From sequence record NC_048172.1: 43,264 nt of DNA; one strand, 5' to 3'. The translations under genes and the position numbers were made by a program. How positions within the stretch are numbered: the stretch's first letter is position 1; each line of letters begins with the position of its first letter. This DNA is from Escherichia phage Minorna. This document shows positions 5,659-43,264 of the stretch, one piece after another. Under the pieces are notes generated by a model. The model saw nothing but the letters and a program-made list of their open reading frames with translations. It did no database searches and was not told the DNA's origin.

Positions 5659-5667
5659 AAACCCTCC

Positions 5668-7221: not shown

Positions 7222-10200
7222 TTAATCGTCTCCGAAGTTATTGATGATAGCTCGCGTAGGCGCGAATTCCTGGATTAACGGGACCTGCTTAGTGAAGGTC
7301 TGGATATCCATATCCCCAGTAGCCAGGGCTTGCACCGCACCCAACAGCCCGGTGACGTAGCCCATAGACGCCAGAGAATGACGCGGAGAGTCCCCAGTGA
7401 AGATATCCTGCAGAAGCGAGATACCACCGATGGCACTCATACCCATAACCGATTCAGCGATAAGCTTTTGAGTGTCGACCTCTTTGCCGTCCATACCGTG
7501 CTTCGCCATAGTTGCTAGAAGCATCAATGGGAACTGGTATGCCATGATGTGTGCAACCCCAATCCACCCGGCATCATTCAACTCGCGGCGCAGAATCTTG
7601 TTGGTGGCAGCCAGGGCGAAGCTCTGATAGCCGACAATTACTTTGCCGATAGGGTTGAACTGGGCGAAGTGCGAGGTCTCACCGGTACGTACTTGCTGCA
7701 CCAAATAGTCCATCATACGCGTCCCTACCACCTCAACTTGCATTTGCAGGTCCGGCTGGAACATAGCACCAGGATTAGCTTTGTTAGCAGCAATAGCCCG
7801 GTCAGCGATTTCACGAGTAAGACCGAAACGTTCCAGACGCTTAAACGCCTCAGCGTCGCCCTTGAACATCTGCTGGAGCTCGTCCGCTACAATACCTGAG
7901 TTAAGGTTAACCTGCAGTCGATGTACCATACTCATACCGTTGACGTGACGTGCAGCCTGTCCAACGTTCTGGGTGACGTTAAACCAGGAAGCCTGACGGG
8001 TCAGGTCCAAGTTATCGTCTGCGTAGGTATTCAACCAGCGGAAGCGCATCTCCTTCTGGATACTACCACGTAGGATTGCATCCAGACGACTAGCCATATC
8101 CGGAGTGCGAATAGCTACGGAACCTTCTTTAAACCAAGGCTGCTCACGCATACTGCGAAGTACTCGGGACATACCAAACTCTTTCAGCGCTAGGGCGGTG
8201 TCAGTAAGCTGGTACAACCCAGAGTTCTTAAGCATGGTAGCGTTGGCCATGTTACCGGCTGCACGGAGCAGGTCCGGCATCTGCCCGGCGTCGGCTGGTG
8301 CCCCACCTAAGATAAAGTCGATGGTGTCATTAACGGTCTTCTCCCACTTACCTGAATCGGCCAGGGCGTGTTTGGACTCATTAATCATTGTCTCCAGCAC
8401 CTTGAGGTCAGATATCCCAGCATAAGCCATACCCACACGACCTGACATTCGGTTAGTATAACCATGCATAACCTTGGCTACGTCAGTATCCATCAGATCC
8501 TGCATACGCATAACCTGACCGTCTACGATGTACTCTTTGTCCATGTTGAAGCGGGTACGTTGACGGAGGTTCTTAGCAGGCGAGGTGGCGCCAGATTCTC
8601 GGACATTACCTGCCAAGAAACTCTGGATTGCATCCTCGTCTACACCAGCATTACGCATGGCCATAACTACTTCATCATTACCCATACCATTGATGAGTTG
8701 CTTCCACATAGGACCAGAGGCCGAGGAGCGTCCGTTGTAGATACCGTCAACCATCTCCTTAGCAACACGTTGAACGACCTCAGGCTCCATAGATGGATAC
8801 ACATCACGCAGTGCCTGACGGAACAGATCCCGATAATTATCCAAGGAGCGACCATTTGCAATACCTTGGCGCATCTTATCGTAGCTGTACTGGCGAGGGA
8901 AGTAATAGTCCGATTTAATCAGAGTACCGTCATCCACCAGCCCGGCAGCAGTCATGTGATCGTGCCACTTACTGGCCCAGCCGGAGTTGCGGTATGCCTC
9001 TACTAGCGGAACCAAGTCAGAGTCCGGCAGAGGTACCGGGCGTCCATTAACCTCCGCGCTGTATGCAGAGTCCAGGTAACGGCCCAAGCGGGCTTCTAAG
9101 TCAGCGCGAGCTGCTCGGAAGTTGCTACGGTGGAAGAAGCGGTCTATGAAACCTACACCTTTGGCCTTAAGGGCACCAAGTATAGCGTCCTCAACTACAC
9201 TGGCACTAGCGTCCATCTCCAACGTAAGGTTACGCTTGAAGTCCACCACAGACGGTTTACGACCGCCTACAGCAGTAGCGTCAGATACTAGTAAGCGTGC
9301 CAGGTCCTCGCTACCCTCTGCGATGTTATCATACAGGGAGAACATAGTGGCGAACTTGCGCTTAGCAGTGTCCATCATAGCTTGGGCCTTCAAGGCCTCA
9401 TGCTTAACCGATGTATCCGCCAAGTCCTGGAAGGCCTCACTCCGGAAGCTCTGAGCTTGGTCTGCGTAGTCCTTTGCGGTCCACTTGACAGCATCCTCGT
9501 ACGCGTCCAGAACATCCTCCAGAGCGGACCCCTTGGTGCGAATCCCCAGGGCATTCATGATGTACTCACCAATCTGGCGGAGCATACTCCTACCAGTAGG
9601 AGATTGAGTTCTAGAGAGATACTCCACCCACTCAGGGCTATCACCTAGTCCTGCTAACATCTCGTGCACATCGCTTGCGTAGTACTTAAGCTTATCACTG
9701 AGGGTTGAATCAGCTGCTATTGCAGCGCGCACCTCTTCCAGCTTACTAGCAATTTCAGGATTCTGCTTGATGGCTCTGGTGGTGGCAGCGTGAATCAGCT
9801 CGTGCACTGCTACTCGGCTAGTGTCCGCATCCATAGCACGCAGAGCATCCCCGGCAGTAGTCCAGGTACTTCCGTTCGCTTTCTTAGGGGCACGTAAAGA
9901 TATAAAACCCCTATCAGTTGTTGATGCTGGTGAAAATCCGTAGTGACTACGGTTAGAAGAACCGGCCACCAGTTTAAAGTCGATATCCTGTACTGCGTCA
10001 CCCAGGGTGTCCAGGATAGCCTTCTGACCTTTAGATAAGTGTTCAGAGGTCTTGAGGAAACGGACTACGTCCTGCGCTTTCATGTTAACAGCAGCAGTGT
10101 TATTCCGGCGAACTTGGATAGGTTCATCCAGTACCTTAGTGAGTATTGTGTCCCCTTCTCCTACTCCTGTAACATTAGCATCCCTTGCTGTACGAGTTGT

Positions 10201-21735: not shown

Positions 21736-21758
21736 TCCTACTCCTGTAACATTAAATT

Positions 21759-24575: not shown

Positions 24576-24716
24576 AGGCGCTTAATCTCCTTGGTTATGT
24601 CCGGTATTTCTAATTACTGGTTTCGACTTAACCAGAGATTGTACATCTCCAGGTAGTCATTAGCGGAGCTTTCATCACCCCGCTCTATTGCTGCTTGCCA
24701 CATCCGGTGGCACCAC

Positions 24717-25031
24717 TCACTTGGAAGCATCTTCTCGCTGCTCTAATTCCAGAATAAACAAGGCGCAACACGCGGCGTGCGCTAGATGCGGAAGCCCGCT
24801 CTCGGTATCCGTTAACTCCCCATTAGCATGCGCCGTTAGGTGGCGCAGAAGCGCGGCTTTGTACCGAGACCGCCCCTCCTCAACAGTGTGCCAGCTATGT
24901 GCTGCATACTTCTGAGCTCCGAATGTAAGTACATCACTAATGCGGAGCAACGCATTAGGGCACCCATCCAGTAGCAGATCCATACGAGGTTTGCCTGCGT
25001 CATACTTCATACCAGTACCTACTGCGCTCAT
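24717..25031 (-). CDS. putative nucleotide pyrophosphohydrolase-like protein (MazG-like / dATP-dGTP diphosphohydrolase N-domain-like)
   Basis: 104 aa; MKYDAGKPRMDLL..FGAQKYAAHSW resembles the N-terminal signature of phage dNTP pyrophosphohydrolase-like proteins as I recall it; assignment tentative. Confidence 0.4.
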   Translation of the reverse strand: MSAVGTGMKYDAGKPRMDLLLDGCPNALLRISDVLTFGAQKYAAHSWHTVEEGRSRYKAALLRHLTAHANGELTDTESGLPHLAHAACCALFILELEQREDASK

Positions 25032-27060: not shown

Positions 27061-27218
27061 TAGCGCCCCGTAATATCGCGGGCCTTCTTATCGGCCCAGT
27101 TAACCCAACGTTCAGCCCACTTCGCCTTTGTGAGTTTATCACACAGATAGCAGAGCCCCGCCAAGGGGATTAGTGGGAGAATCAAAACTACGTAAATCGC
27201 ACGCTGTAAGTATAGCAT
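27060..27218 (-). CDS. small membrane protein (52 aa), absent from the ORF track (below 60 aa)
   Basis: ATG at 27218-27216 shares its A with the upstream TGA stop; its TAA stop overlaps the exonuclease ATG (TAATG); translation MLYLQRAIYVVLILPLIPLAGLCYLCDKLTKAKWAERWVNWADKKARDITGR has one hydrophobic helix. Confidence 0.35.
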   Translation of the reverse strand: MLYLQRAIYVVLILPLIPLAGLCYLCDKLTKAKWAERWVNWADKKARDITGR

Positions 27219-28799: not shown

Positions 28800-28964
28800 T
28801 TAGAGTTTTGAAGCGACGGCGGCGGCAACGAACACCAGGATTATAGCCAGCGCAGCAGGGCCCCAGAACGGGAGCAGCACCCACAGCCAAGACCAGGTGA
28901 TAACTCCGGTCAGTTTCAAGGTTACAAAGATAAGGCCCAGTACAGAACAGATTCCCATTTTCAT
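28800..28964 (-). CDS. small hydrophobic membrane protein (2 predicted TM helices)
   Basis: Translation MKMGICSVLGLIFVTLKLTGVITWSWLWVLLPFWGPAALAIILVFVAAAVASKL; start set to ATG 28964 (GAGGTG upstream; alternative ATG 28958); track ORF extends to 29006. Confidence 0.45.
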   Translation of the reverse strand: MKMGICSVLGLIFVTLKLTGVITWSWLWVLLPFWGPAALAIILVFVAAAVASKL

Positions 28965-30546: not shown

Positions 30547-30768
30547 TCACTCCGCGATGAGCTTGTACTCTCCAGCGAAGAAGGTGATGCCGTCCCCAGG
30601 CTTCTCTGAATTATTGTCTGGATTCATTAACTCCACCTCCCAGAATTCGGGGTCATAAGATATCACACGATGCTGAGTGCCTGGTGCAAAGTAATCACGA
30701 TGTCTAGGTTCTAAGGGTTCCGGCCCAAGTCCCAGTATCTCCACAATACTACCCGGTTTAATAGTCAT
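30547..30768 (-). CDS. hypothetical protein (73 aa)
   Basis: Small ORF directly after the DNA polymerase gene; start overlaps the polymerase stop. Confidence 0.45.
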   Translation of the reverse strand: MTIKPGSIVEILGLGPEPLEPRHRDYFAPGTQHRVISYDPEFWEVELMNPDNNSEKPGDGITFFAGEYKLIAE

Positions 30769-33131
30769 TCTACTTTCTCCTTACTGTACATGCTTGTACC
30801 CATTTCAGCTTCCGCTGGGAACGGGACTTCGCCAATGATGCCGTAGTTAGGCCAGAGCTGGTGAATACGCTTAGGTGCATCCTCCATACACTGCTTAACT
30901 AACAGGCTCGCTTCTCTGCCTACTTCCGGATTAGCACTATCCAGATACAATGCATCGTGCACGTTCGTAATCAAGCACACCTGATTATTGAACCAATCCC
31001 GTGCCAGCATTGCACGCAGAACCATACCAGCTGCTACCGCCATCAGGAAGAATGCCTCACCCTGACACCAGTAGTTAGCCATCTCAGTTTCTTTGTAGTC
31101 CATCACCTTTTGTTTGCGCTGGCCAGGGACTACTTCCTTCCACTGCTCCTTCTGGCGGAAACTGTACCGTGCACCAGCTGGGCTGGTCCAGGTGCCAATG
31201 CGGTAGATGCGGTAGCTGCCATCATCCGCTTGCTCCCGGTAAATGCGCCCAGCCGCCCCGGTGCGCTCTACCTCCTCCTTTACTACCGCCCGGAATCCGA
31301 TGGTGTCTGGGAACAGCTTCGCCTCGTTATCCAGGAACGACTGCGCATACTCCACTGTACAGCCTGTAGCAAACGCAATCCCTTTAGCCGTAGCCCCGTA
31401 CTGTGCAGCAAAGCTCGGAGGCTTAATGTCCGTACGCTGCTGCTTCCAGTATTTGTAGTCCGGCCCATCTGCGTTGTGGCAGAGGTCGTACATCTCTTCG
31501 TAGGTTTTGCCCTCCTTGAACGCTAGGCGGTAGCAGTGCATATCCGTGCCGTTCTGCAGCAAACCCAACAGCTTCCTGTCTCCGGTGTGAACACAAGACA
31601 TAACCACTTCCAGGGCAGAGTAGTCAACCTCAGTGATACGACCGGATTCACCGAAACGGGAAGTGAACATCTGTTTTACTTTACTAGTTCCATCTCGCGG
31701 GAGATTCTGGAGGTTTGGGTTAGAGCCAGATAGTCTCCCGGTAACAGTAGCACAGGTGTTGAGGCGGTGGTGGATAACACCCGAACCATCAAGGTTCTGA
31801 GGTATAACATATTGGAGCATGCCTGAGGTCTTTTTAATTGACCCATCTTCGTTATACTCCGTTCGTAGATAGTAAGTTCCTGTATCCTTTTCCAGAGCGC
31901 CGAGTTCGTTCACCAATCGACAGAACTCAAATCCATGACGTGCTAGGGCTTCCATTGCATCTGTGCTGGTGCTGTAGATTGGTGTCCCATCCTGCAAGCA
32001 CCGAGCTTGCCTGAACTCCCCACGCTCAGCGTATTTCTCTCGGAGCACCTCTGGGAGTTCTTGGATGTTAACTAGGCCTGGACAGAAGTAGAGGTCGTCC
32101 TCCCACTTGAGTTTCTCCTCTTCAGTGTCCACTCGGAACACTTTTGGTAGGCCCTTGTTCTTCCCTGCTTTGTAGGTTACATAATTGTGTGGTCCAGATA
32201 CGTCGGTGCTATCACAAGGTACGAATGTTCCGTCAGTGCCCTGCACCAGGTACGCATCACACTTAACGTACTGTGGAGGGTCGTATGGTACTTTCTTGCG
32301 ATACTTGATAGGGCCACCGTATACCAGTGCAGACATATGGAAGTCCGAGCCGAAGTTGAAATCCAGTGTCTCCGGCAAGTCCTTCGGGATGTATTGTTGC
32401 AGCTCCTTCTTAATCTCCAGGATACGCTGCTCCTGCTCCTCTTGGTTCTTGCGAGCAATGGGCATATTCACGAACAGACCGAACCATTCGCAGTAGGCCC
32501 AGGCCAGTAAGGCATCCATGCGCTCCCACACATACTGCATCTGATTACGCTGGGCGAACGTAGCGCACTGGCCGTAGAAGCACAGGGCCGTGTTCGGTAT
32601 ATCCCCATTCACTAGGTAGTCATGCAATAGCATAGGATCAATCTGGGAGGTTAATACACCTTGATCCCAGAGAATCTTAACCCCATCTACTTTGTGCGTA
32701 CCGCCGTACTTAGGAGCCGTCTCGTCCAGTGACGGATACATGCTCTGAAAGTCCGAGGCGATGTATTCTCCGTGCATCGTGCAGAACACCCTGCCGCCGC
32801 GCTTGAGGAAGGCCTCAAACTGCTGCCGCTGGTACGTGAGAAACCAAGAAATCTCATAGGCTGCGTTGTGCGCAACAATAAGCCAGCAATCTTCTGGGAT
32901 ATGAAACCACCGGCAGCCTTCTGCTGCACTGTTTCCCGCCAAGAAATCAGCTCTTGAATTGAAGCGCACCGATTGAGTCGCACCAACAGTGGTAGTACCG
33001 TCAGCCTGTGTCGTGTCGATACGCCATGCTGACTCAACAACATAGTTGTCAGGGCAGTATGGGCTTGCTTTAGAGCCATAATATTCATGGTTCTCTGTCT
33101 CCAAGTCGATGTGCATTATGCTGGTTGTCAT
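30765..33131 (-). CDS. DNA polymerase (family A, with 3'-5' exonuclease domain)
   Basis: 788 aa; N-terminal Exo I-like HIDLETE; Pol A fingers motif VTGRLSGSNPNLQNLP; position after the helicase gene. Confidence 0.85.
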   Translation of the reverse strand: MTTSIMHIDLETENHEYYGSKASPYCPDNYVVESAWRIDTTQADGTTTVGATQSVRFNSRADFLAGNSAAEGCRWFHIPEDCWLIVAHNAAYEISWFLTYQRQQFEAFLKRGGRVFCTMHGEYIASDFQSMYPSLDETAPKYGGTHKVDGVKILWDQGVLTSQIDPMLLHDYLVNGDIPNTALCFYGQCATFAQRNQMQYVWERMDALLAWAYCEWFGLFVNMPIARKNQEEQEQRILEIKKELQQYIPKDLPETLDFNFGSDFHMSALVYGGPIKYRKKVPYDPPQYVKCDAYLVQGTDGTFVPCDSTDVSGPHNYVTYKAGKNKGLPKVFRVDTEEEKLKWEDDLYFCPGLVNIQELPEVLREKYAERGEFRQARCLQDGTPIYSTSTDAMEALARHGFEFCRLVNELGALEKDTGTYYLRTEYNEDGSIKKTSGMLQYVIPQNLDGSGVIHHRLNTCATVTGRLSGSNPNLQNLPRDGTSKVKQMFTSRFGESGRITEVDYSALEVVMSCVHTGDRKLLGLLQNGTDMHCYRLAFKEGKTYEEMYDLCHNADGPDYKYWKQQRTDIKPPSFAAQYGATAKGIAFATGCTVEYAQSFLDNEAKLFPDTIGFRAVVKEEVERTGAAGRIYREQADDGSYRIYRIGTWTSPAGARYSFRQKEQWKEVVPGQRKQKVMDYKETEMANYWCQGEAFFLMAVAAGMVLRAMLARDWFNNQVCLITNVHDALYLDSANPEVGREASLLVKQCMEDAPKRIHQLWPNYGIIGEVPFPAEAEMGTSMYSKEKVE

Positions 33132-33316
33132 ACTACACGCATCTCCCCTACGTAAAAGTCTTCGTGCGGAACGTTGTAGTGTTTGCGGCTATCATTCAAC
33201 CAATACGCAGCAAGCTCCGCGTGGTATCGGTCTTTGAAACACCCCAACACCTCCTCGCCGTAATCCTCATAGTCCCAGCTATAGCTATACATCAGCATGT
33301 ATATCTTCATTTCCAT
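33128..33316 (-). CDS. hypothetical protein (62 aa)
   Basis: Small ORF translationally coupled to the DNA polymerase gene. Confidence 0.45.
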   Translation of the reverse strand: MEMKIYMLMYSYSWDYEDYGEEVLGCFKDRYHAELAAYWLNDSRKHYNVPHEDFYVGEMRVV

Positions 33317-33462
33317 TTAGCCCTCCGAGCCTTGTTAATTGCCAAGTGCACAATCAGCTGGCTGCTATCCAGTGCGAACCGTTTACGGAAAGTACCTGCA
33401 GATGCAGCGTACGCCTTGATTACCTCATCGTCGAGATAGTTAATGTCTAGTGGTTTAAGCAT
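33307..33462 (-). CDS. small ORF (51 aa), absent from the ORF track
   Basis: ATG at 33462 with AGGAGG 6 nt upstream; stop overlaps the next gene start; contains the CTGCATCTGCA motif in its coding sequence. Confidence 0.35.
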   Translation of the reverse strand: MLKPLDINYLDDEVIKAYAASAGTFRKRFALDSSQLIVHLAINKARRAKWK

Positions 33463-33480
33463 GGTAGCCTCCTATGTACC

Positions 33481-33510
33481 TACATAGCGCCCTCTAGGAA
33501 GGCGCTAGGG
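33481..33510 (-). promoter_or_regulatory. conserved dyad element, copy 3 (tagcgcc-N9-ggcgcta)
   Basis: Plus strand tacatagcgccctctaggaaggcgctaggg; shares ACATAGCGCCC and the GCTA arm with the elements at 40691 and 41467; 19 nt upstream of the ATG at 33462, just after the helicase stop. Confidence 0.45.
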
Positions 33511-33513
33511 AAG

Positions 33514-34794
33514 TCACCTGTTAATCTGCCCTTCGTTAAAGCGGCACCTACCTGGGTCGAATGCCACCTCGAATTGCAGGAGCGATTCTTTACCAGATAG
33601 TGCCATCTTATTCTTCGGCGTACTGATACCACGAATGTTTTGCATATGCGGCTGCTCATTCCTGTCCAAGCACCCCATCATAATCGCCAAATCCAAAGCA
33701 CCTTGTACACCAATCTTACTCTGTTTCATTGCCGTGAGCGGAGGGAACAGTAGGTTGTAACCTTCGAGTGAAAGCTGCATAGTACCGATAACGGCACAGT
33801 CATTCTCACACCCCAAGATACGCAGCTCCTGCCACTTCGCTTCTAGATTCTGGTGCTCACTCTCCATAGTACCACCACGGATGTTCGCCACCATATCAAT
33901 GATGATTACCGCTGGGCGCATCTCCTCCATGAGCGTAGAGATTTGAGCCATCGTAAGGGAGTGCGCTGCCTTGATACGGATGCGGTCTGCCCTACCTACT
34001 TTCTCCAGATAGGCTGGCACAAACTCTTGCTTACTGTGCCTGTCCTTAATCTCAGCCAGAGTCCAATGCAGCGCCGCTTGGTATACCCTCGGCACAGTAC
34101 GCGTCGCCGGGCCTTCATTAACCAGCCATAGAATCGGACGATCCCCGTACACTTCCGGTTGCTGCTGCATCTGCTTAGCGAAGTCCACAGCAATAGCAGC
34201 GAGTAGGCTAGTTTTACCAGAATCAACAGGGGCAGCCACAGCAATACAATCACCACCACGAAGCCCACGGATGCTATTAGAGAGTTGCTCAAACACACCC
34301 AGCTTAAGACCGCCACTTTCATCAGTCGCGGCAAGTATCTCATCAACACTTCCGCTCTCCCATTCCAGTAGCGAATCATGAACAGCAGCACCATCACCGT
34401 ACTTGCGCTGGAGGTGCTTCATCTCCAGCAGGTAATCAACTTCCTCCCCGTCTTGGTAGCGCTGCGTGAGCGCTGCGACCTCTCCACTGTACGCCAGCTC
34501 GTTCAGGGTCTGGACAATCCCCACCACAGAATCCTGCGGCACGGCTTGTACTCCCCGCATAAGCTCGTCCATGATTACCCTCTCTTCCCGGGATAAGTGT
34601 CCGGCCCGGAGATTGAGCATGCTCTGCATTGCATCCCACTGCACCTCCTGGTGCTCTGGGTACGTGTTCCAGTACAGCCCTACCCAGTCAAGTAGGTTCG
34701 AGGTATCAGGGGCGAGCATGCTCTTGGGTATCTGCTCTCGCAGTCGGTTCCAGACCTTCTGCGTGCACATTGCCTTGACTACTATTAGGTCCAA
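33514..34794 (-). CDS. replicative DNA helicase (DnaB-like)
   Basis: 426 aa with Walker A-like AAPVDSGKTSLLAAIAV and DnaB-like C-terminal architecture; adjacent to the primase region. Confidence 0.8.
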   Translation of the reverse strand: MDLIVVKAMCTQKVWNRLREQIPKSMLAPDTSNLLDWVGLYWNTYPEHQEVQWDAMQSMLNLRAGHLSREERVIMDELMRGVQAVPQDSVVGIVQTLNELAYSGEVAALTQRYQDGEEVDYLLEMKHLQRKYGDGAAVHDSLLEWESGSVDEILAATDESGGLKLGVFEQLSNSIRGLRGGDCIAVAAPVDSGKTSLLAAIAVDFAKQMQQQPEVYGDRPILWLVNEGPATRTVPRVYQAALHWTLAEIKDRHSKQEFVPAYLEKVGRADRIRIKAAHSLTMAQISTLMEEMRPAVIIIDMVANIRGGTMESEHQNLEAKWQELRILGCENDCAVIGTMQLSLEGYNLLFPPLTAMKQSKIGVQGALDLAIMMGCLDRNEQPHMQNIRGISTPKNKMALSGKESLLQFEVAFDPGRCRFNEGQINR

Positions 34795-35019
34795 TTATAC
34801 AATCTCCACTCTGATAGTTCTGTTTGGGCCACCAACTTCATGAACATAGTGACGGAAGTATTCTAACTGCAGTCGCCGCTTTGCATCTTCCAGTGCTTGG
34901 TGGTACTGTACCAGCTTACGCTCCTCCTGCTTGCTACGGCAGTATCCACACTTAAGGTCGTGCCAGGAGCGATAACCTTTTCCACAGTCACAAACATGGC
35001 TAATTAATTGTACGCCCAT
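34795..35019 (-). CDS. hypothetical zinc-ribbon protein (74 aa)
   Basis: Two Cys pairs (CDCGKGY..CGYCRSK) suggest a zinc ribbon. Confidence 0.45.
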   Translation of the reverse strand: MGVQLISHVCDCGKGYRSWHDLKCGYCRSKQEERKLVQYHQALEDAKRRLQLEYFRHYVHEVGGPNRTIRVEIV

Positions 35020-35225
35020 TAAACCTCCACTTTGTAGATGGCACTCTTTCTAGCATGCGCTCGACACAGGCTCTCTGCCTCATGAAGGTTGGGGTACGTG
35101 TTAATACCTACCCCACGCCCGGATCTGCACAGTTGCCACCAGCGCACCGGAAACCACCAGAACTTAACCTGCGCCTCAAATCCTGCGTAGTTGTCCTGCA
35201 CTACTCTGTACTTATTCTTAAACAT
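35019..35225 (-). CDS. hypothetical protein (68 aa)
   Basis: Small basic ORF coupled to neighbours. Confidence 0.4.
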   Translation of the reverse strand: MFKNKYRVVQDNYAGFEAQVKFWWFPVRWWQLCRSGRGVGINTYPNLHEAESLCRAHARKSAIYKVEV

Positions 35226-36006
35226 TCAAAGCCTCTAGTATCTCTTTGATTTCTGCGTCCTTCGGGTCCGCAGCGAAGTAGTGTTCTCGGCATTGCATGA
35301 ACGGGCGCAGCGCTTTGCGTGCCGCTGCTACCCCAGCATGCCCTGCCAGGTCATTGTCCAGCATTAGAATCACTTCCGGGCGATTCTGAATCAGCCAGGC
35401 CCTTAGCTGCGTGGGCAAGCGTGTACCCAGCATAGCTATAGCCTGCACGTTCAACGCACTGTAGCTCGTAACTGCGTGCTGTATCTTCCGGGCTGAGAGT
35501 AAGTCCTCGGTGAGCACGACCTTTAGAGGTGCGGCCGCAGCTACAGCCGGTGCTACGGCAGGTGCCGCGACAGCGAAAGCTATTGGCTGGCCGTACATTA
35601 CCCACTTCGGTTGCTGCCGGGCATGAACAGCACGGCCCAGTACAGCACCCCCGACACAGAATAGTATCCGCTGTTTCTCGTTGCTCCACTCTGCATCCTC
35701 CACCATTTCAGGCATGATTCCTTTTGAAGCAAGGAATCCGTAAATAAAACTCTGCGTTTCCGCAGGCGCTTGGCTAATGCAAATTGCATCTGCAGGTGCA
35801 GAGGGCTGCACCCTCGGCTCTTCCTGTAACTGTATGCGCTGGTACTGCTTGCGCTCCTTGCCTACCTGTTTGCAGCGGTGGCAATAGTATTCCCAGGCAT
35901 CCGGGTTATTGTAGAGCACCCCGGCGGCGTCCCTGCCGCAGCACCGAAAGCGTGCCCTCTGCCCCACGGCCAGGCGCTTGCACGCTCTAAGCCAGGGTTG
36001 GTCCAT
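35218..36006 (-). CDS. DNA primase (zinc-binding N-terminus plus TOPRIM domain)
   Basis: 262 aa; N-terminal Cys pairs (RCCGRD..CHRCKQ) and TOPRIM-like acidic motifs (VVLTEDLLSARK..ILMLDNDLAGHAG). Confidence 0.75.
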   Translation of the reverse strand: MDQPWLRACKRLAVGQRARFRCCGRDAAGVLYNNPDAWEYYCHRCKQVGKERKQYQRIQLQEEPRVQPSAPADAICISQAPAETQSFIYGFLASKGIMPEMVEDAEWSNEKQRILFCVGGAVLGRAVHARQQPKWVMYGQPIAFAVAAPAVAPAVAAAAPLKVVLTEDLLSARKIQHAVTSYSALNVQAIAMLGTRLPTQLRAWLIQNRPEVILMLDNDLAGHAGVAAARKALRPFMQCREHYFAADPKDAEIKEILEALNV

Positions 36007-36212
36007 TACTTTAATCTCATAGTTGTGGCATATGCGAAGTTAGGTTGCCGGAGAATCATGGGCTCACTCAACAGCACCGGGGCCCCGTCGTGTAGGTAAA
36101 ATATATCCCCGCTAGGAGATTTTATGGCCCAGTAACTTGTTGTGCCCCAGGTAAATGGGACAGCCGTCCTGATAGTGTTGGGTACGGTGTTGTAATTTAT
36201 AGTACTAGACAT
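36006..36212 (-). CDS. hypothetical protein (68 aa)
   Basis: Small ORF in the coupled array. Confidence 0.4.
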   Translation of the reverse strand: MSSTINYNTVPNTIRTAVPFTWGTTSYWAIKSPSGDIFYLHDGAPVLLSEPMILRQPNFAYATTMRLK

Positions 36213-36678
36213 GTGCTTTCCCCTTGCGTTTGATATCCATAGCCATGCGACGAAGGTCGTGTGCTAATTGCAGGGCTGCGTCGGGACTCATATTAATACC
36301 GATCTCCCGCTCCGCCCGGGTGCTGTTCTTTCTAGGAACTACTCCGATGTAGAGTAGGTTCTCATCAGTCCAACTGCATCTTTCTAGGACTAGCCGCTGA
36401 TCGTTGCCGTGGTCGCGCTTGGAGTTCATGTAAGCCACACTAGCTGGAACCGGTGGCAGCTCGTCGTCAGGCTCTTGGTACAGTTTGAAGTTAGGTGCAT
36501 ACCACGGGCAACAGTCATAGTCGATAGTAAAGTTATCCAACTGCAGCCAGTGGCCGCTTGAGGTCATAGCTGTAACTGTGTAGTAATCAAAATCCCCTTG
36601 GTGCTTCTTAAACGGCGAGCGGTCGTCGGGTGATTTGCGTACTACTTTATCACCAATTTTAAACTTAGACATAATCAA
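36205..36678 (-). CDS. hypothetical protein (157 aa)
   Basis: ATGA-type overlap with the upstream peptidase-like gene; no recognisable motif. Confidence 0.5.
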   Translation of the reverse strand: MIMSKFKIGDKVVRKSPDDRSPFKKHQGDFDYYTVTAMTSSGHWLQLDNFTIDYDCCPWYAPNFKLYQEPDDELPPVPASVAYMNSKRDHGNDQRLVLERCSWTDENLLYIGVVPRKNSTRAEREIGINMSPDAALQLAHDLRRMAMDIKRKGKAHV

Positions 36679-37709
36679 CCCTCCACAATATTATCGTATC
36701 CACCCCAGTCCTCTACAACTCGGGTGCCTAGTTCAATCAGTTCTTCTTTGAAGCCATAATCAGAATACACCATGATGTATTCCGCCGCCCTTGCTGGGTT
36801 ATCTAGCACCCAGCTAATCAGTTGCTGCTTAGAAAGTTGTGACACCTCCTTAAACGCTGCTAGTAAATGCGGATCTTCCGCAGGGGGAACATCCAGGGGC
36901 ATCGTTAGGGGATGCGTATAGGCAGATAACCACGTATCCGGTTCCACTACTTTAGGATCACGCTCAATCGGCAGGTGCTTGAATGTACCTGGACTGAGTA
37001 CGTGCTCCAGTACGCTGCCAAGAATGCTAAGGTCCAGCACCTCATCCGGAGTATGCTCGTGCATGTACCCTACACCTACGTTAGTGCATTCCGGGATAAT
37101 CTGCATGAACTCAGCGGAGTCCGTGTATACCCCTTTCTGTAAGTGCGCATCCGTTCGTCCTAATCGGGCCGCCAGCTCCTTTGCAAACGTATCAGAACAG
37201 CAACGTTGGTATCGTTGATGCGTAATGATCCCATCCCCACGGCGGTCAAAGCTAATCATTGCCTTGACCCCAGTCCAGAAGCCAGTATCATCTTTTGCGG
37301 ATGCACTGCTACCCTCACAGCCTACTTCTTCATCCACGAAGAAGCAGTAGCGTCCATGTACTCCCTGCCTAATCATCTCCAGCATCAAGTAGATACCAGC
37401 ACCACAGTCTGCACCTAGACAGTCCGCCACCTGTGGATTCCGCAGGAACATTACACCCTTGTTAGTGATTGCAATGTCTGGCGCAGCGCTACCAGGCCGG
37501 GCCACTGTATCCAGATGTGAAGTAAACGCTACATCACTCTGTTCAGAGCCGCCAATAAGCACAAAGTAGTTACCATGAGCGTCTCTTACATAGTGCTCTG
37601 CACCAGCAAGAGCGCTACTAAGTAGCGGCTCAAACCATTTGGTACTACCCCAGCTAGGTCGGTGCGTTGTTAGTATCTTTGTTAGTAGTTTAAGGTCAAC
37701 ACCATACAT
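36675..37709 (-). CDS. putative zinc metallopeptidase-like protein (M20/M28/M42 aminopeptidase-like fold)
   Basis: 344 aa with metal-ligand-like motifs in the order expected for co-catalytic aminopeptidases: TSHLDTV (HxD), GADCGAG, FFVDEEVGCEGS (EE pair), GYMHEHTPDE (distal His/Glu). By-eye motif match only. Confidence 0.5.
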   Translation of the reverse strand: MYGVDLKLLTKILTTHRPSWGSTKWFEPLLSSALAGAEHYVRDAHGNYFVLIGGSEQSDVAFTSHLDTVARPGSAAPDIAITNKGVMFLRNPQVADCLGADCGAGIYLMLEMIRQGVHGRYCFFVDEEVGCEGSSASAKDDTGFWTGVKAMISFDRRGDGIITHQRYQRCCSDTFAKELAARLGRTDAHLQKGVYTDSAEFMQIIPECTNVGVGYMHEHTPDEVLDLSILGSVLEHVLSPGTFKHLPIERDPKVVEPDTWLSAYTHPLTMPLDVPPAEDPHLLAAFKEVSQLSKQQLISWVLDNPARAAEYIMVYSDYGFKEELIELGTRVVEDWGGYDNIVEG

Positions 37710-39409
37710 TAAGCTGCCTCCTGTTCTGCTTTAGCTTCTTTGTCTTCTTCGGCTTCTTCATTACCGAGGTAGGGCTCATCCAATACGGACGCAGCATACT
37801 CCGTGAGAATCATACCGTGCACGGGGTGCTCTTCGGCATGCACACTCAGAACATTGTACCCTTGTACGCACACCATTGGCTCTTCATCATGCACTGTACC
37901 CTCTACAGCACAATGTTCTACGTCCCGGTCAAGTACCCAAGAGTCGTGGTAGTCAGACCATGAGCAATCCCATGATGGGTACACTACGCTGCGGCCCACT
38001 ACCTGTACGTAAGTATCACCGATGCAGTGCGGGCATACATAACCACCGTCACAAGCTACGTACATGTCATCCTCGTCGAAGCGTCCCCCGCACTCTACAC
38101 AAGCGCTGCGACCATCATCAATCCAAATGTACCCATCAGCGTCCTGCGCTTCGTAGTCGTAACAGTCGCAGATACAGAATGCATCCCCGCCCAATTCATC
38201 CACCCCGTCTTGGTTCCCATCCAAGTACGGCATAAGCACGGCACCGTCATGCTCTGGGTGCGGGATACGCGCCAGCGTTGCACCATCTAAGCAGTCTGTA
38301 TCTAGCTCATACCCATTAGCACGTAGAATGGCGTCCGCAGCATCCCCGTATGCACGGACGTATTCATTGGTTTCGATGTTAACGATAGCGCGGGCGTGCA
38401 CTTTAAAATCATCGCCAAAAAGTTCACCAGTATACTGGATGAACAAGCGCAGCCCATTATCCGGCAAGCCGTGACTAGTCGTGGCATATACACGCACCGG
38501 GCTAGCCTCGAAGTCGTATCCGGTCATGCAGCTACGAGGACCATTCTCGTATGCGTAGTACCACTCCCGTTCGGTCTTACAAAGATATGTAGTAGGCTCC
38601 ACGTTCATAGCTTTGAGGTCTTCAATACATTCCCGGAAGTCTACACCGCCTCCGTAATAATTAGCGAGCAACTTGCCTGCCCGCATCTCTACACAGCGAT
38701 ACTCAGTAACAGCGGCGTAGTCTTTGTGTAATCGCGGCTGCCCCAGCATTACTACAGGCTCACCGTTGCGGAAGCCAAAACCTAGAGGGATTGCAAATCT
38801 AGACACTACAAATCCGTGCAACTGCATAAGCAAGGTTGCTGCCCAAGAGTCCCCATCATACACACTGTACCCACGAAGGTATTTGGCCCGGAGGGAGTGA
38901 GTAGGTGCTAGCATAATCTCTTCGAACAACTCTATAGCCTGTTTGTGCACCTTGTATCCGGTAAAGTATTGGACCGCTTCTACTACACGCTCTGTAACTA
39001 CATCAGGGCCATCATAGAAGGTTCTGCTAGATAAACCGAATGCTTGGTCGCAGGTACCTGCACAGTCAAAGAGCTTATACAGGAGAGTGTCACTAATATC
39101 AACCGTGCCCAGCGGCCCAACATACCCACCCAAATCCTCTCCTGCAGCTGTAAAGTTGCCGAGTGCTACAATATACCCCGGCAGCACCCTTGAAAACATA
39201 TAAAAGCCATTCAAAAGCGCACGGGTTTTGTTACTTTGCACGCGCGCACGGCCTTGAGTTGATAGGCAGGGAAGTTGGCACCAGTAATCCCCGGAAGAGT
39301 ACATACTATCCTTCAGTGGGAGAGCATTGGCCCCTTCTGGAAATTTGATGGTCCAACTCTCATAGGCAGGTACTTTTACGTCTACGGTTACTTTGTTAGT
39401 CTCTTGCAT
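37709..39409 (-). CDS. large early hypothetical protein, acidic with Cys-rich C-terminal region (566 aa)
   Basis: Largest early ORF; start set to ATG 39409 (GGAGA about 8 nt upstream) because the track ORF to 39703 overlaps the upstream gene by about 250 nt; C-terminal region has CxC and CxxC clusters (CICDC..CVECGG..CPHC) in a strongly acidic context; Glu/Ala-rich tail. Confidence 0.55.
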   Translation of the reverse strand: MQETNKVTVDVKVPAYESWTIKFPEGANALPLKDSMYSSGDYWCQLPCLSTQGRARVQSNKTRALLNGFYMFSRVLPGYIVALGNFTAAGEDLGGYVGPLGTVDISDTLLYKLFDCAGTCDQAFGLSSRTFYDGPDVVTERVVEAVQYFTGYKVHKQAIELFEEIMLAPTHSLRAKYLRGYSVYDGDSWAATLLMQLHGFVVSRFAIPLGFGFRNGEPVVMLGQPRLHKDYAAVTEYRCVEMRAGKLLANYYGGGVDFRECIEDLKAMNVEPTTYLCKTEREWYYAYENGPRSCMTGYDFEASPVRVYATTSHGLPDNGLRLFIQYTGELFGDDFKVHARAIVNIETNEYVRAYGDAADAILRANGYELDTDCLDGATLARIPHPEHDGAVLMPYLDGNQDGVDELGGDAFCICDCYDYEAQDADGYIWIDDGRSACVECGGRFDEDDMYVACDGGYVCPHCIGDTYVQVVGRSVVYPSWDCSWSDYHDSWVLDRDVEHCAVEGTVHDEEPMVCVQGYNVLSVHAEEHPVHGMILTEYAASVLDEPYLGNEEAEEDKEAKAEQEAA

Positions 39410-39455
39410 TTTCTTTGTCTCCGGTGTTAATAGTATCTCATCATGTATTAAAAGT

Positions 39456-39800
39456 TCAGCGCGCATACCACGCAGAGAGCTGTCGCTGCTTATAGTATGA
39501 GCGCACAGCCGCCCTAAATCTTGTATACGCTCCACGATACCCATACCGTAGCAGTGCTGCGACCACATCGAACGCAATGTGCTCTTGCAATCTGCGCGCG
39601 GCAGACTCTGTATACTCTCGATAGGTTGTGAGAACAGTGCCAGTACCCTCTTTTCTAACGCGGAGTAATCGACGCTCAACTGGTACGATTTGCTTGAGTT
39701 CATTAGGAACCTCTTTGAATGTTTCCCAAGTGCAGCCGCACTTGCCTTGTGTTTCCAGCAAGCGCCAACACAGTAGCGCTGTTTCGTCTACTGTGAGCAT
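39456..39800 (-). CDS. hypothetical early protein (114 aa)
   Basis: Arg-rich small ORF in the early array. Confidence 0.5.
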   Translation of the reverse strand: MLTVDETALLCWRLLETQGKCGCTWETFKEVPNELKQIVPVERRLLRVRKEGTGTVLTTYREYTESAARRLQEHIAFDVVAALLRYGYRGAYTRFRAAVRSYYKQRQLSAWYAR

Positions 39801-39802
39801 AT

Positions 39803-40006
39803 TTAATCCTTGAATACTACGTTGCGGGCCACGAGGGTAATCCCACTACCAGCTACTACATCGCCAACTGTGGCATGTGCCTGCATCCACCCACCATACA
39901 CTTTGAGGTATAACTCGGCGGGTTTGTGCAGCGCGTTATGCAGTTGCACTCGGTACAGTACCCCGTACTGACTCTTGTACAAGTCATACTTAACTAGTTC
40001 ATTCAT
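39803..40006 (-). CDS. hypothetical early protein (67 aa)
   Basis: ATG overlaps the upstream stop in an ATGA arrangement. Confidence 0.45.
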   Translation of the reverse strand: MNELVKYDLYKSQYGVLYRVQLHNALHKPAELYLKVYGGWMQAHATVGDVVAGSGITLVARNVVFKD

Positions 40007-40182
40007 ATTACACCTCGCACATTAAAACGTTGACAGTAACCGCGCAGGGTCATACCCAGCCGCTTTGCTTGTTTCTCATAGTGCTGGCGCAGCGCTGCTT
40101 TTGCGGTGTACTCCCGCGCCAGTCCGTCGATTGTTGGTTGCTGCTTACGCATCAGCAGCACCTCAGGATTCTTTCCGTACAT
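40003..40182 (-). CDS. small early ORF (59 aa), absent from the ORF track
   Basis: ATG 40182 with GAGGT 6 nt upstream; stop overlaps the next start; fills an otherwise unexplained 180-nt gap in a tightly packed array. Confidence 0.3.
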   Translation of the reverse strand: MYGKNPEVLLMRKQQPTIDGLAREYTAKAALRQHYEKQAKRLGMTLRGYCQRFNVRGVI

Positions 40183-40189
40183 CTTTACC

Positions 40190-40453
40190 TCAAATATCGT
40201 TGTTGCTTACACCGTCCACGGTCAGAGTTACAGCGATGTTGGGTTCTTGCTCTCGCACCGCCTTAAGTAGGCGAATACCTAACGCCTTGCAACCTCCCTC
40301 TGGATTCTCAAAGAGGTCATACTCAGGGCGCGGTTGCTGCTCTTGATGCTGCCCTTGTTGAACGTGTACAGTGCAATAGGGCACTGGGTTATTCACGTCG
40401 TTGCCTAGCACCAGCATGGCGCTGGTAACAATGATGTTGACAATACTAGTCAT
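40190..40453 (-). CDS. hypothetical early protein (about 87 aa)
   Basis: Start set to ATG 40453 (GGAGA 7 nt upstream); track ORF extends to 40483 and would overlap the upstream gene. Confidence 0.45.
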   Translation of the reverse strand: MTSIVNIIVTSAMLVLGNDVNNPVPYCTVHVQQGQHQEQQPRPEYDLFENPEGGCKALGIRLLKAVREQEPNIAVTLTVDGVSNNDI

Positions 40454-40667
40454 AAAGTTGTCTCCAGTCGGTAACAATACCAAGATTCACGGCGTCCAGC
40501 AAAGTACGCGCCGCCATTTCGGTGCAAGTATCTACGAGATCTAAAGGGGATTCCTGATTGGTGTCGCGGTCAGAGAATATCATTACAGTGTAGTTGTACT
40601 CTGTATGCACTTGATTGCACCATATGGGCCAGAGTACATGCCCCGGATAGATTAGCTTTGCTTTCAT
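40446..40667 (-). CDS. hypothetical early protein (73 aa)
   Basis: ATG preceded by GAGGT and by the conserved dyad element 24 nt upstream. Confidence 0.5.
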   Translation of the reverse strand: MKAKLIYPGHVLWPIWCNQVHTEYNYTVMIFSDRDTNQESPLDLVDTCTEMAARTLLDAVNLGIVTDWRQLYD

Positions 40668-40690
40668 TTGAAACCTCGTTGTTAACGGTA

Positions 40691-40720
40691 TTCACATAGC
40701 GCCCCGCAGGACGCTATAGG
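40691..40720 (-). promoter_or_regulatory. conserved dyad element, copy 1 (atagcg-N10-cgctat)
   Basis: Plus strand ttcacatagcgccccgcaggacgctatagg; 26 of 30 nt identical to copy 2, with a compensatory pair change in the stem; lies in a 188-nt intergenic gap; a perfect TATAAT (minus strand, 40732-40727) sits just upstream. Confidence 0.5.
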
Positions 40721-40855
40721 CTTACCATTATACGTATTCTCCCAATCCCTCATAGTGCCACCTGTTATGGCGGCCTCGGGTTGGCACATCAAAGGCGTCA
40801 GAGTCGTTAGCTGCCGGAATCAGTGCTCACCACTTGATAGCTTGAATCTTATAAA

Positions 40856-41431
40856 TCATGCCGCTACCTTCAAAGTTGCATCCAGCACAGCGCGTACATC
40901 CACGCCCTGACTGATAAGCATAGATACCAAATCAGAGTCGCTCACCCCAGTTTCTTTAGCCTTCTTGATAGCGTTTTTAACGCGCCCCAGAGCTTGCAGA
41001 CGCACTGCATCGGCATCAAGGGCATCATTCTTCACCTGCTCTGCTTCGGCGTTGTACAGGGCCATACAAGCGCTATAGAAGCTGGCCACAATCACTTCAC
41101 GGCCTTGCTTGTCAGCTTGTTTATAGTCCAAACGCATAGTGTCCAGTTCAATGCCCAGCTTTTCAGCCGACGCATAGCACTTTTTAGCGTGGAATTCGTA
41201 CTTGCCCGATTCCTTGTTGAACTTGATAGGCAGCAGTGTACGCAGCACCATATCGAAATCGGCGGCATCACTGCGCTGCATATCCGTCGCCCAAGAAACG
41301 TTGCTACTAATCAGGCCGTGGAACAGAGCGCTGATAGTAATATTGCGTTTTGCTTCCACTACATCGCCCAGCGCCTTGCGAATGCTGCCAGCAGCGGTTA
41401 ATTTGAATACTCTACCAGTTGAATGAGTCAT
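40856..41431 (-). CDS. hypothetical early protein (191 aa)
   Basis: Second gene of the early region; GAGGT 5 nt upstream of the ATG; no recognisable motif. Confidence 0.55.
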   Translation of the reverse strand: MTHSTGRVFKLTAAGSIRKALGDVVEAKRNITISALFHGLISSNVSWATDMQRSDAADFDMVLRTLLPIKFNKESGKYEFHAKKCYASAEKLGIELDTMRLDYKQADKQGREVIVASFYSACMALYNAEAEQVKNDALDADAVRLQALGRVKNAIKKAKETGVSDSDLVSMLISQGVDVRAVLDATLKVAA

Positions 41432-41466
41432 GATGCACCTCTTTGATTGGTTGTTTAGGTAATTAC

Positions 41467-41496
41467 TTCACATAGCACCCCATAGGATGCTATAGG
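41467..41496 (-). promoter_or_regulatory. conserved dyad element, copy 2 (atagca-N10-tgctat)
   Basis: Plus strand ttcacatagcaccccataggatgctatagg; relative to copy 1 the stem changes G/C to A/T at paired positions; 36 nt upstream of the ATG at 41431. Confidence 0.5.
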
Positions 41497-41502
41497 CTGT
41501 AA

Positions 41503-41718
41503 TTAGCGTCCGAACTGCCCAGCAGTATACCAGCCTTGTGGCACCTTGCTACTTCCCCTTGTTTTGGTCTTACCGCGTACATTCGTACTAAACGTCGCAG
41601 ATTGCTTCATCCGCATATACCCAGCACGATTCAGCGCATCCCGGCGTTTTCTCAATTCAGGACCGGATAACTTCTCGAGTCCAGCGAACTGTTGTGCTAA
41701 CTTCTCACGATATTTCAT
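41503..41718 (-). CDS. first early gene, small basic protein (71 aa)
   Basis: ATG 41718 preceded by GAGGAGG; the track ORF (41733) begins at an in-frame TTG lying inside the SD, so it is over-extended. Confidence 0.5.
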   Translation of the reverse strand: MKYREKLAQQFAGLEKLSGPELRKRRDALNRAGYMRMKQSATFSTNVRGKTKTRGSSKVPQGWYTAGQFGR

Positions 41719-42266
41719 TGTGTACCTCCTCAAAGTTAATGATTAACGCCCTAGCAGTATTTAGCAGGACGCTAATTCTTAACCTTGTTGCCCACTGCAC
41801 TACCGTGGAACCTGTGGTTCAGGTCTCGGCGCTATTCTTTTAAGGGGCAGCGCCTCAGCGCCCCAGCCGTTTGTCATCTCGGCCCTTGATGTTACTTCTG
41901 AACTGCACTGATTATCTAGGATTGGTCGTCATCGTACCAGTCAAGGTACTGGGCCTCCCCGCAAATCAGCTTACTACGCCTTGCTTGCTTACTAAGTTAC
42001 TGCTTATCGCTCAGCTTGTCAATCACTTTCTTTCGTTCGGTCATCCGGTGCTTCATACGCCACCGGCAGCTACTGCGTGGGCTTTCCCTCCCTCCCGAAC
42101 TACTTTGATTTGTTTACCGTGTCCGCATACTCCGGTAAACGGTGCTTTCCCTAGCGGGTATCCGGCAGGCTTCGCGGTTCCTATCCGTTCCCCCTTTGGC
42201 GCGTCCTTGTATCACTCCCCGCCGTGTCGCGCCTTCCGTTGCGCCTCCTCCGTATTGCTTGGATTC

Positions 42267-42295
42267 AATCTAGCCTATGTTCTTCGCGGTGTCAA
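42267..42295 (-). promoter_or_regulatory. candidate sigma70-type early promoter (TTGACA-N17-TAGATT on the minus strand)
   Basis: Plus-strand tgtcaa at 42290-42295 and aatcta at 42267-42272; correctly oriented and spaced for minus-strand transcription toward the early genes. By-eye hexamer match only. Confidence 0.25.
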
Positions 42296-42499
42296 CCCTT
42301 TTTGTTGAGTATATAACCCTTCACACTATCTAGCCTTAATCCGGCGGAGTCTCCCGACTCTGCCCCGTTCAGCGCCTCAGCGCCTCCCGGTGATTGAACT
42401 ATAGCGCCAATAAACCAAAGGAAGCAAGCACTTTTTTAAACTTTTTATCACTAGGAGCAAAAAGGGTAAGCAGGGCAATGATTTAGCCAATGCCTCCAT

Positions 42500-42549
42500 T
42501 CTAGGGATAGCTCTAGGGATAGCCCAATACTAGCCAATACTAACTAATA
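42500..42549. repeat. tandem 12-mer tctagggatagc x2 followed by ccaatacta(g/a)-type tandem units
   Basis: Plus strand tctagggatagctctagggatagc then ccaatactagccaatactaactaatac. Confidence 0.85.
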
Positions 42550-42771
42550 CCATTTAACGCTACACAAAGCAGAGCGCAGTGACGTAACGGGAGTGGAGTC
42601 ACGGAGCGATGCGGTGACTGTGTAGGTAATGCTTACTCCCTACGGTCGTAATATAGGGCATTACTAGGGGATACTAGTGAATAGTAGTAAGTAGTATGTA
42701 TCTAGTGCCCTAAAACCCTCCTACTCGTGTAACATCATTTCTAAATAGCTTTCGAATGAAAGTAAGGGGAA

Positions 42772-42792
42772 AGGGATAGCTCTAGGGATAGC
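42772..42792. repeat. second copy of the gggatagc-tctagggatagc repeat
   Basis: Plus strand agggatagctctagggatagc, about 270 nt from the first copy. Confidence 0.85.
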
Positions 42793-42879
42793 AAAGGATA
42801 ACGCTAGGTGGCGGATAGTGGAAGTGCGCCCTAGTGGGGAGCGCGCAGCGTAGCATATAATCGGCACAATGTAAAGCAC

Positions 42880-42913
42880 TAGAGATAACCCTAGAGATAG
42901 CTCTAGAGATAGC
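42880..42913. repeat. variant repeat ctagagataaccctagagatagctctagagatagc
   Basis: Same CTAG-(G/A)GATA(G/A)C unit family with G to A variants; agagataaccctag recurs at 43051-43064. Confidence 0.85.
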
Positions 42914-43050
42914 ATATAGACGCACTAGCAGCGCACTGGGCGGCCCACTCGGCACATACTATGGCCCACTACTGGCCCACTGGGCGGCCCGCTAGAGGTC
43001 CGCAAAATAAGCAAGGCAGAGCGCACCTCTACGCCCCACAGAGAGCACGC

Positions 43051-43091
43051 AGAGATAACCCTAGTGCCCCTCAGTGCCTCCCTAGTGCCTC
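43051..43091. repeat. tandem ccctagtgcc-like units
   Basis: Plus strand agagataaccctagtgcccctcagtgcctccctagtgcctc. Confidence 0.8.
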
Positions 43092-43187
43092 TACGAGAGG
43101 CGCATAGTGATAGGCATAGGGTTACCCTAGTGATAGCCATTAAGGCGCGCAGGGAGCTTCTGCGGCCCTCCTAGAGCGCCCTCAGCT

Positions 43188-43211
43188 GGCCATCTAGACG
43201 TCTAGACGGCC
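43188..43211. repeat. 24-bp near-perfect palindrome (ggccatctagacgtctagacggcc) at the extreme end
   Basis: Perfect 12-bp core ctagacgtctag at 43194-43205; one mismatch in the outer arms; immediately followed by a C13 homopolymer (43210-43222) and a ccccc-tat-gggggg inverted repeat (43241-43254). Confidence 0.85.
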
Positions 43212-43264
43212 CCCCCCCCCCCTCCTTTATACGCTAGGCACCCCCTATGGGGGGCAATTGGGCG

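Follow-up and report, generated by a model that had tools for sequence, protein, structure and literature searches.

Two short coupled open reading frames of Escherichia phage Minorna appear to be genuine members of small-protein families of KP34-like phages

Do the shortest open reading frames (ORFs) of a tightly packed phage genome encode proteins, or do they merely occupy the spaces between the genes that do? Two ORFs of Escherichia phage Minorna (NC_048172.1), whose 43,264-nucleotide stretch we refer to as the window, raise this question: ORF A, of 51 amino acids, and ORF B, of 59 amino acids (Table 1). An initial annotation had proposed that both are real coupled genes of a unidirectional array. 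We find both where it had placed them, initiated by ATG and on the minus strand, which it had left unstated and which carries all genes in this part of the window. The window itself is the genome of a Drulisvirus-like (KP34-like) phage of the Autographiviridae; in DNA searches the nearest records were the E. coli-infecting phages AV102, ZH5, PSK2, EC22.5-2 and phiHAO78-1 and the Klebsiella phage KPV811, at about 86-93% DNA identity across 13 kb. The region of both ORFs was fetched from 13 relatives, among which ORF A was examined in 11 and ORF B in 12. Taking the evidence together, we consider it highly likely that both are genuine small coding genes of a Drulisvirus-like phage.

The comparison with relatives carries this conclusion. 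No broken frame was seen in any fetched relative that carries the gene (11 for ORF A, 12 for ORF B), and, for both ORFs, no frame of the six but the claimed one stays free of stops in all fetched relatives. The start codon and the stop lie at the same place, with lengths of 50-51 amino acids for ORF A in relatives carrying the gene and 58-62 for ORF B. The ratio of non-synonymous to synonymous substitution (dN/dS; Nei-Gojobori, pairwise against the window) is well below 1 for both ORFs, at 0.03-0.37 for ORF A (variable third positions 42/51) and 0.12-0.31 for ORF B (variable third positions 58/59), and the excess of synonymous over non-synonymous change gave Fisher p values of 1e-4 to 4e-10. 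The refuting condition set by the initial annotation, frames broken in relatives, and its test of synonymous against non-synonymous change both come out on the side of coding. Intact frames, family membership and selection agree, and we take ORF A and ORF B to be genuine protein-coding genes under purifying selection and members of described families.

Could the frames be untranslated all the same, that is, chance ORFs in spacers that are conserved for the sake of regulatory DNA or RNA elements or of a gene on the opposite strand? Plus-strand ORFs do overlap both, for example 33125-33439 (104 amino acids) and 40030-40266 (78 amino acids), and a conserved palindromic motif adjoins ORF A. However, changes are concentrated at the third codon positions of the claimed frames, each of the other five frames contains stops in at least some relatives, the protein identity of ORF A in Klebsiella phages (about 96%) exceeds the DNA identity (about 86%), ORF B is still recognisable at 45% identity in another subfamily, and there is no Rfam match in 33000-43264. 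Because of the dN/dS values and the stops in all alternative frames this explanation is effectively refuted, and we regard it as extremely improbable.

The translation signals fit genuine coding genes as well. The Shine-Dalgarno sequences named in the initial annotation are present, AGGAGG 5 nt before ORF A and GAGGT 4 nt before ORF B; the former is kept in AV102, RothG, K1PH164C1, PSK2 and KP-Rio, and TGAGGT at the start of ORF B is kept in relatives. Both stops overlap the next start, as had been claimed: the TGA of ORF A forms an ATGA at 33310, or overlaps by 10 nt if the next gene begins with ATG 33316, and the stop of ORF B shares an ATGA at 40006-40003 with the next start codon. If the two ORFs were left out, about 197 nt and about 183 nt of the array, respectively, would be without a gene, so that the gap filling also holds. 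This placement suggests that both would be translated by coupling within the minus-strand early and DNA-metabolism array.

Table 1. Coordinates of the two ORFs, their neighbours and associated signals in the window.
Feature	Coordinates	Strand	Details
ORF A, 51 amino acids, MLKPLDINYLDDEVIKAYAASAGTFRKRFALDSSQLIVHLAINKARRAKWK	33307-33462	-	ATG 33462-33460, TGA 33309-33307
Shine-Dalgarno sequence AGGAGG of ORF A	33468-33473	-	5-nt spacer CTACC to ATG; read from the sequence
Diverged third copy of the palindromic motif, CCCTAGCGCCTTCCTAGAGGGCGCTATGTAGG	33482-33513	-	between the helicase stop and ORF A
DnaB-like replicative helicase gene	33514-34794	-	from the ORF list and relatives' annotation; upstream of ORF A
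Small gene after ORF A, 62 amino acids (ATG 33316) or 60 amino acids (ATG 33310)	33128-33316	-	phrog_35137
DNA polymerase (family A) gene	30765-33131	-	from the ORF list and relatives' annotation; downstream of the ORF A module
ORF B, 59 amino acids, MYGKNPEVLLMRKQQPTIDGLAREYTAKAALRQHYEKQAKRLGMTLRGYCQRFNVRGVI	40003-40182	-	ATG 40182-40180
Shine-Dalgarno sequence GAGGT of ORF B	40187-40191	-	4 nt to ATG; overlaps the TGA of the upstream gene (40192-40190)
Gene upstream of ORF B, 87 amino acids, phrog_7036	40190-40453	-	stop 7 nt before ORF B
Gene downstream of ORF B, 67 amino acids, phrog_7916	39803-40006	-	ATGA-coupled to ORF B
KP34 RNA polymerase promoter matches	42722-42737 (one mismatch), 21739-21754 (exact), 10162-10177 (exact)	-	

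Neither gene is new. ORF A and ORF B are ordinary members of uncharacterised small-protein families that are already known, and relatives' records list both as hypothetical proteins. The contention that annotation with a size filter misses such genes stands in part: the records of Kp2, with a different frame annotated at the position of ORF A, and of NTUH-K2044-K1-1, in which the DNA polymerase gene alone lies under the ORF A match, do miss it, whereas unfiltered gene callers find these genes, and in the K1PH164C1 record the ORF A homologue was found by all four callers.

ORF A is a member of the PHROG family phrog_4548 (E 1.7e-28, 99.2 bits, residues 1-51 against positions 1-53 of a 53-position profile), with KP34 gp18 (YP_003347669.1) and fHe-Kpn01 Gp19 as counterparts. 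Its protein is 100% identical to AV102 WPK33008.1 and 78% identical to Gp19. Close relatives share the length of 51 amino acids at 78-100% identity, the slot with the helicase gene upstream and the DNA polymerase gene downstream, the MLK start, and an ...ARRxxWK-TGA end that overlaps the next start codon; we see no substantial difference from KP34 gp18 or the PHROG family, and only the gene that follows varies between phages. ORF B is a member of phrog_5136 (E 5.4e-32, 110.7 bits, residues 1-58 against positions 2-57 of 58) and meets the Pfam family DUF7267 (PF23929) at 89.3 bits, far above a gathering cut-off of 27 bits (E 2.2e-25, residues 2-59 against positions 4-64 of 64); DUF7267 was matched by all 21 sampled relatives of ORF B. 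Its counterparts are KP34 gp07 and fHe-Kpn01 Gp9, the latter 88% identical, and these, like the two families, agree with it in a full-length match, the same place in the early region and the same coupling to the next gene. The differences are confined to some relatives that start 2-3 codons upstream (61-62 amino acids) and to RothG, which starts with GTG. NCBIfam gave no match for ORF A, ORF B or their neighbours, and no literature mention of DUF7267 was found.

The homologues in fHe-Kpn01 have been cloned and transformed into E. coli in a toxicity screen (PMC7291057). With toxicity set at a relative colony count of 0.4, both were non-toxic, at 1.16 +/- 0.58 for Gp19 and 0.60 +/- 0.005 for Gp9; neither was among the proteins detected in virions, and HHpred gave no match for either (PMC7291057). 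ORF A and ORF B would be basic, helical proteins of about 6-7 kDa with an isoelectric point (pI) near 10, and we propose that they most likely act as small nucleic-acid- or protein-binding modulators inside the infected cell, being in this proposal neither enzymes nor structural parts.

The two genes differ in how widely they occur. In tblastn searches ORF A was matched in 232 phage records, at least 80% of the protein being covered in 229 of them, and ORF B in 311, with the same coverage in 305. A metagenome-scale search returned 58 protein clusters for ORF A and 120 for ORF B. The ORF A family is narrow, with only 6 representatives among 1.84 billion proteins, and about 50 of the ORF B records come from Pectobacterium and Dickeya phages, with identities of about 45%. 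Almost every KP34-like phage carries ORF B as an early gene, and its conservation extends to Pectobacterium phages from a different subfamily.

ORF A, in turn, is an accessory gene of narrow distribution, set between the helicase and DNA polymerase genes and dispensable, because a minority of relatives have lost it or carry a truncated form. In ZH5 it is deleted save for the last 24 nt or so; the sequence immediately past the upstream palindromic motif is fused to the remnant of ORF A, which still provides the ribosome-binding site and the ATGA of the gene that comes next. In KPV811 both ORF A and the small gene behind it are missing, and the palindromic motif there leads directly to the DNA polymerase gene. 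A few metagenomic variants (P0057, P0300, P0301) are truncated or frameshifted.

The slot that separates ORF A from the DNA polymerase gene is a hot spot of gene replacement. In the window it holds the small gene of phrog_35137, which ends 4 nt into the DNA polymerase gene; we favour ATG 33310 as its start since the PHROG alignment begins at residue 3. The occupant is an unrelated 60-amino-acid ORF in AV102, a gene annotated as 'protein DA1' in RothG and an HNH endonuclease in KP34 (gp19) and VLC4; the slot is empty in Kp2, and in some relatives the DNA polymerase gene comes directly after ORF A. Whatever gene follows, the AAATGA stop-start junction of ORF A is retained throughout. AltoGao and PAS7 carry HNH endonuclease genes on the other side, between the helicase gene and ORF A.

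What might ORF A do? ParD is the antitoxin of plasmid RK2, and its N-terminus is a ribbon-helix-helix DNA-binding domain. ParD (2an7) was the top match of ORF A in a profile search of the PDB (E 0.31; residues 6-32 against ParD 7-33). Five of 22 members of the ORF A family matched the Pfam family ParD (PF09386) in the same register, all below threshold, the best being P0047 (E 6.8e-4, 20.4 bits against a gathering cut-off of 27.3 bits). Aligned with hhalign, the ORF A family and the ParD alignment gave a probability of 56-57% and a pairwise E-value of 1e-4 over 28 columns. The observed score of 25.5 was higher than those of all 200 column shuffles (mean 9.8, maximum 19.7), and the controls, the ORF B profile against ParD and a reversed ORF A profile, stayed at 0.1-0.3% probability. 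The register is thus the same in three independent searches; it pairs ORF A 5-32 with ParD 6-33, that is, with the end of the strand, helix 1 and the start of helix 2, at about 32% identity. A weak profile match of ORF A to a 412-amino-acid protein (P0302) was discounted, as this is a repeat protein that shares only the short word 'VLDSS'.

Based on this resemblance, the most likely mechanism for ORF A would be a ribbon-helix-helix-type dimer, like the N-terminal DNA-binding region of ParD, that carries an extra, highly conserved basic C-terminal helix; we would give this mechanism slightly less than an even chance. The more specific proposal, that ORF A is a minimal ribbon-helix-helix protein which descends from the DNA-binding domain of ParD-type antitoxins or has converged on it, and which serves a lytic Drulisvirus as a dispensable regulator or anti-defence factor, strikes us as unlikely in that full form.

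Several points weigh against our reading of the two ORFs, most of them on the side of function. No ribosome profiling or infected-cell proteomics was found, the mass spectrometry of fHe-Kpn01 being of virions only, and there is the loss or truncation of ORF A in some relatives. The functional part is weak: the ParD similarity was singled out in retrospect, as the best among many database matches; the window's own ORF A gives no Pfam ParD match at E-values up to 10, and the best family member is sub-threshold; and the most conserved part of the protein, residues 31-50 (LDSSQLIVHLAINKARRxxW), lies outside the ParD-like stretch. The AlphaFold monomer of ORF A is of low confidence (mean predicted local distance difference test, pLDDT, 62.9) and all-helical (helices 9-22, 26-29 and 34-50), with no strand and hence without the N-terminal strand of ParD, and Foldseek against the PDB found nothing for it with E below 7.

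The differences from ParD itself are also considerable. ParD has 83 amino acids and a toxin-binding C-terminal half, whereas ORF A has 51 and neither that half nor a partner toxin gene; the alignment ends at ParD residue 33 of 83, leaving the C-terminal toxin-binding region without a counterpart. No toxin-family match was found in Pfam, PHROGs or NCBIfam among the neighbours of ORF A, which are the helicase, a variable small ORF or HNH endonuclease and the DNA polymerase, and tblastn against plasmids found no homologues of either ORF. The scores lie below the family threshold and the ORF A model does not confirm the ParD fold. Given that it has no Pfam match of its own, no strand, and no toxin-binding half or toxin gene, and that its conserved part lies outside the alignment, we do not file ORF A as a member of the ParD family.

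These observations also bear on whether ORF A could mimic an antitoxin or act as an anti-defence decoy, a shortened ParD interfering with a ParDE-type toxin-antitoxin defence of the host from a position like that of the T7 gene 4.x group. Several searches find a ParD resemblance in its N-terminal 28 residues, always in one register, it is dispensable and patchily lost, as would be expected of a host-specific accessory gene, and its slot is variable and also accepts HNH endonucleases. Moreover, T7 gp4.5, which is encoded between genes 4 and 5, counteracts toxin-antitoxin defence. Yet the likeness is limited to the DNA-binding and dimerisation region of ParD, the toxin-binding half is missing from a protein of this length, the scores fall under the Pfam cut-off, and there is no ParE-like gene nearby and no plasmid homologue; we therefore judge the decoy to be very unlikely indeed. 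As for T7, genes 4.1-4.7, which lie between the helicase and polymerase genes, also encode small, non-essential proteins with host-directed or unassigned roles, but their likeness to ORF A is one of position only, without any sequence relationship.

M1-23 of the Pectobacterium phage PhiM1 resembles ORF A in being small and non-essential and in having its gene among the DNA-metabolism genes of a phage of the T7 supergroup, and it shows that a small phage protein can decide the outcome of host defence (PMC5377504). However, it lies between exonuclease and endonuclease genes, is toxic and has no sequence relationship to ORF A, the homologue of which is non-toxic. We rejected this protein, which triggers a host defence, as a counterpart of ORF A or ORF B because it lies elsewhere in the genome.

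If ORF A is a ribbon-helix-helix protein, it might bind the palindromic motif TAGCGYC-N-GRCGCTA. The hints toward putative DNA binding are indirect: its pI of 9.99, and the presence of the motif directly upstream, which is, however, kept in phages without ORF A, namely ZH5 and KPV811. A regular-expression search of the window found three copies of the motif (AGCCTATAGCGTCCTNNGGGGCGCTATGTGAA), at 41470-41498, at 40694-40722 and, in diverged form, at 33482-33513, all on the minus strand. The copies fold as stem-loops with a stem of about 8-10 bp and z-scores of -2.1 to -4.1, the diverged copy standing at -2.1. The motif is annotated as a MEME 'promoter' in KP-Rio/2015, and two copies have been termed 'putative phage promoters' (PMC4411677). 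The experimentally defined promoter of the KP34 RNA polymerase, T(A/G)ATGTTACAGGAGTA (PMC6834552), is unrelated to it. We regard the motif as a candidate RNA processing site, nick site or protein operator.

As to promoters, the window holds 6 matches to the KP34 promoter if up to 3 mismatches are allowed, where chance would give 0.5; the best three of the 6 are listed in Table 1. There is a sigma-70-like site at 42295-42267; sigma-70 promoter-like and terminator-like sites in general are no commoner than in shuffled sequence. The left-end promoters are upstream of both ORFs, no strong phage promoter stands between the ORFs and 21754, and the two genes are probably transcribed as part of the early to middle unit.

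In the early region, ORF B precedes the genes for a 664-amino-acid protein and a peptidase. Its protein has a pI of 10.28, and the AlphaFold model (pLDDT 77.2) is all-helical, with two short helices flanking a long central one. Foldseek against the PDB returned nothing with E below 7 for this model, the top two hits being the ribbon-helix-helix proteins NikA and Arc at a probability of 0.3 over 24-27 columns, and a sequence profile search of the PDB gave no match. The gene upstream of ORF B likely starts at ATG 40453, given that the PHROG match spans residues 11-97 of a 97-amino-acid ORF with a TTG start; its homologue in KPV811 is likewise 264 nt long. The label 'putative DNA-binding protein' in phage NNA-G4 was rejected as a clue to ORF B because it belongs to this upstream gene.

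For the function of ORF B, the only lead that we can draw is its coupling to a homologue of a toxic protein and the conserved module around it. The 67-amino-acid protein downstream is 44% identical to fHe-Kpn01 Gp10 (E 1e-19), which is toxic in E. coli and one of three toxic proteins of that phage (PMC7291057); the window's own protein may share this toxicity. In the Pectobacterium phage Peat1 the gene order is preserved (ORF B, small gene, 114-amino-acid gene, large gene, peptidase gene), and the C-terminal motif TLVA(R/K)NVVFK of the 67-amino-acid protein is kept in Peat1 gp06. In the Salmonella phage KKP 3828 and the E. coli phage PAS7 a different gene follows the ORF B homologue. We tentatively propose, with more doubt than confidence, that ORF B would most likely be a three-helix basic protein that works with this adjacent early module, composed of the Gp10-like toxic protein, the 114-amino-acid protein, a large protein found in virions and the peptidase.

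In a narrower alternative, ORF B would neutralise or regulate the Gp10-like protein as its partner, the two forming an antitoxin-first, toxin-second cassette in the early region. The ATGA overlap couples the two genes as in such a cassette, Gp10 of fHe-Kpn01 is toxic in E. coli and Gp9, the ORF B homologue, is not, and the pair keeps its order with the 114-amino-acid gene in Peat1, where the small gene shares only the C-terminal motif. However, that motif makes the pairing in Peat1 no more than loose, the different next genes in KKP 3828 and PAS7 show that pairing is not obligatory, every gene in the array is tightly coupled, and early toxic phage proteins usually aim at the host and need no antidote. 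We thus hold a dedicated antitoxin role to be distinctly unlikely, and prefer to see ORF B as a basic protein of the wider module.

Further along this module, three proteins of the 'early' region of fHe-Kpn01 (2813-5999, corresponding to 36205-39703 of the window, minus strand) have been found in virions by mass spectrometry, according to annotation notes: the large protein, the peptidase and the 155-amino-acid protein that follows. Because early-region proteins were detected in those virions, the conserved module downstream of ORF B may encode proteins that are packaged and possibly ejected.

The two ORFs are not the only short genes in the window, which contains at least five intact genes below 60 amino acids and one that is disrupted. 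The latter, at 40728-40859 (minus strand), is a 43-amino-acid homologue of KP34 gp03, AV102 WPK33022 and fHe-Kpn01 gp04 and is ATGA-coupled to the upstream gene of 191 amino acids. At codon 11 it carries a TGG-to-TGA nonsense change (base 40827), where all relatives read KWWAL, so that it is truncated or a pseudogene in the window, or the change is a sequencing error. Conserved ORFs of 38, 52 and about 53 amino acids lie at 24617-24730, 27063-27218 and 28806-28964, all on the minus strand, and have AV102 counterparts that are 90-98% identical; the latter two look hydrophobic and membrane-like.

A display or annotation cut-off of 60 amino acids thus hides real genes in this genome, and the deposited annotation of relatives is inconsistent on them. 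The practical point is modest, and the current understanding of these phages is unchanged by our findings. Factors for host takeover and anti-defence are known to occur among the small early proteins of phages. That both ORFs are real and conserved, that their homologues are non-toxic and that ORF A is dispensable helps to rank them for functional work.

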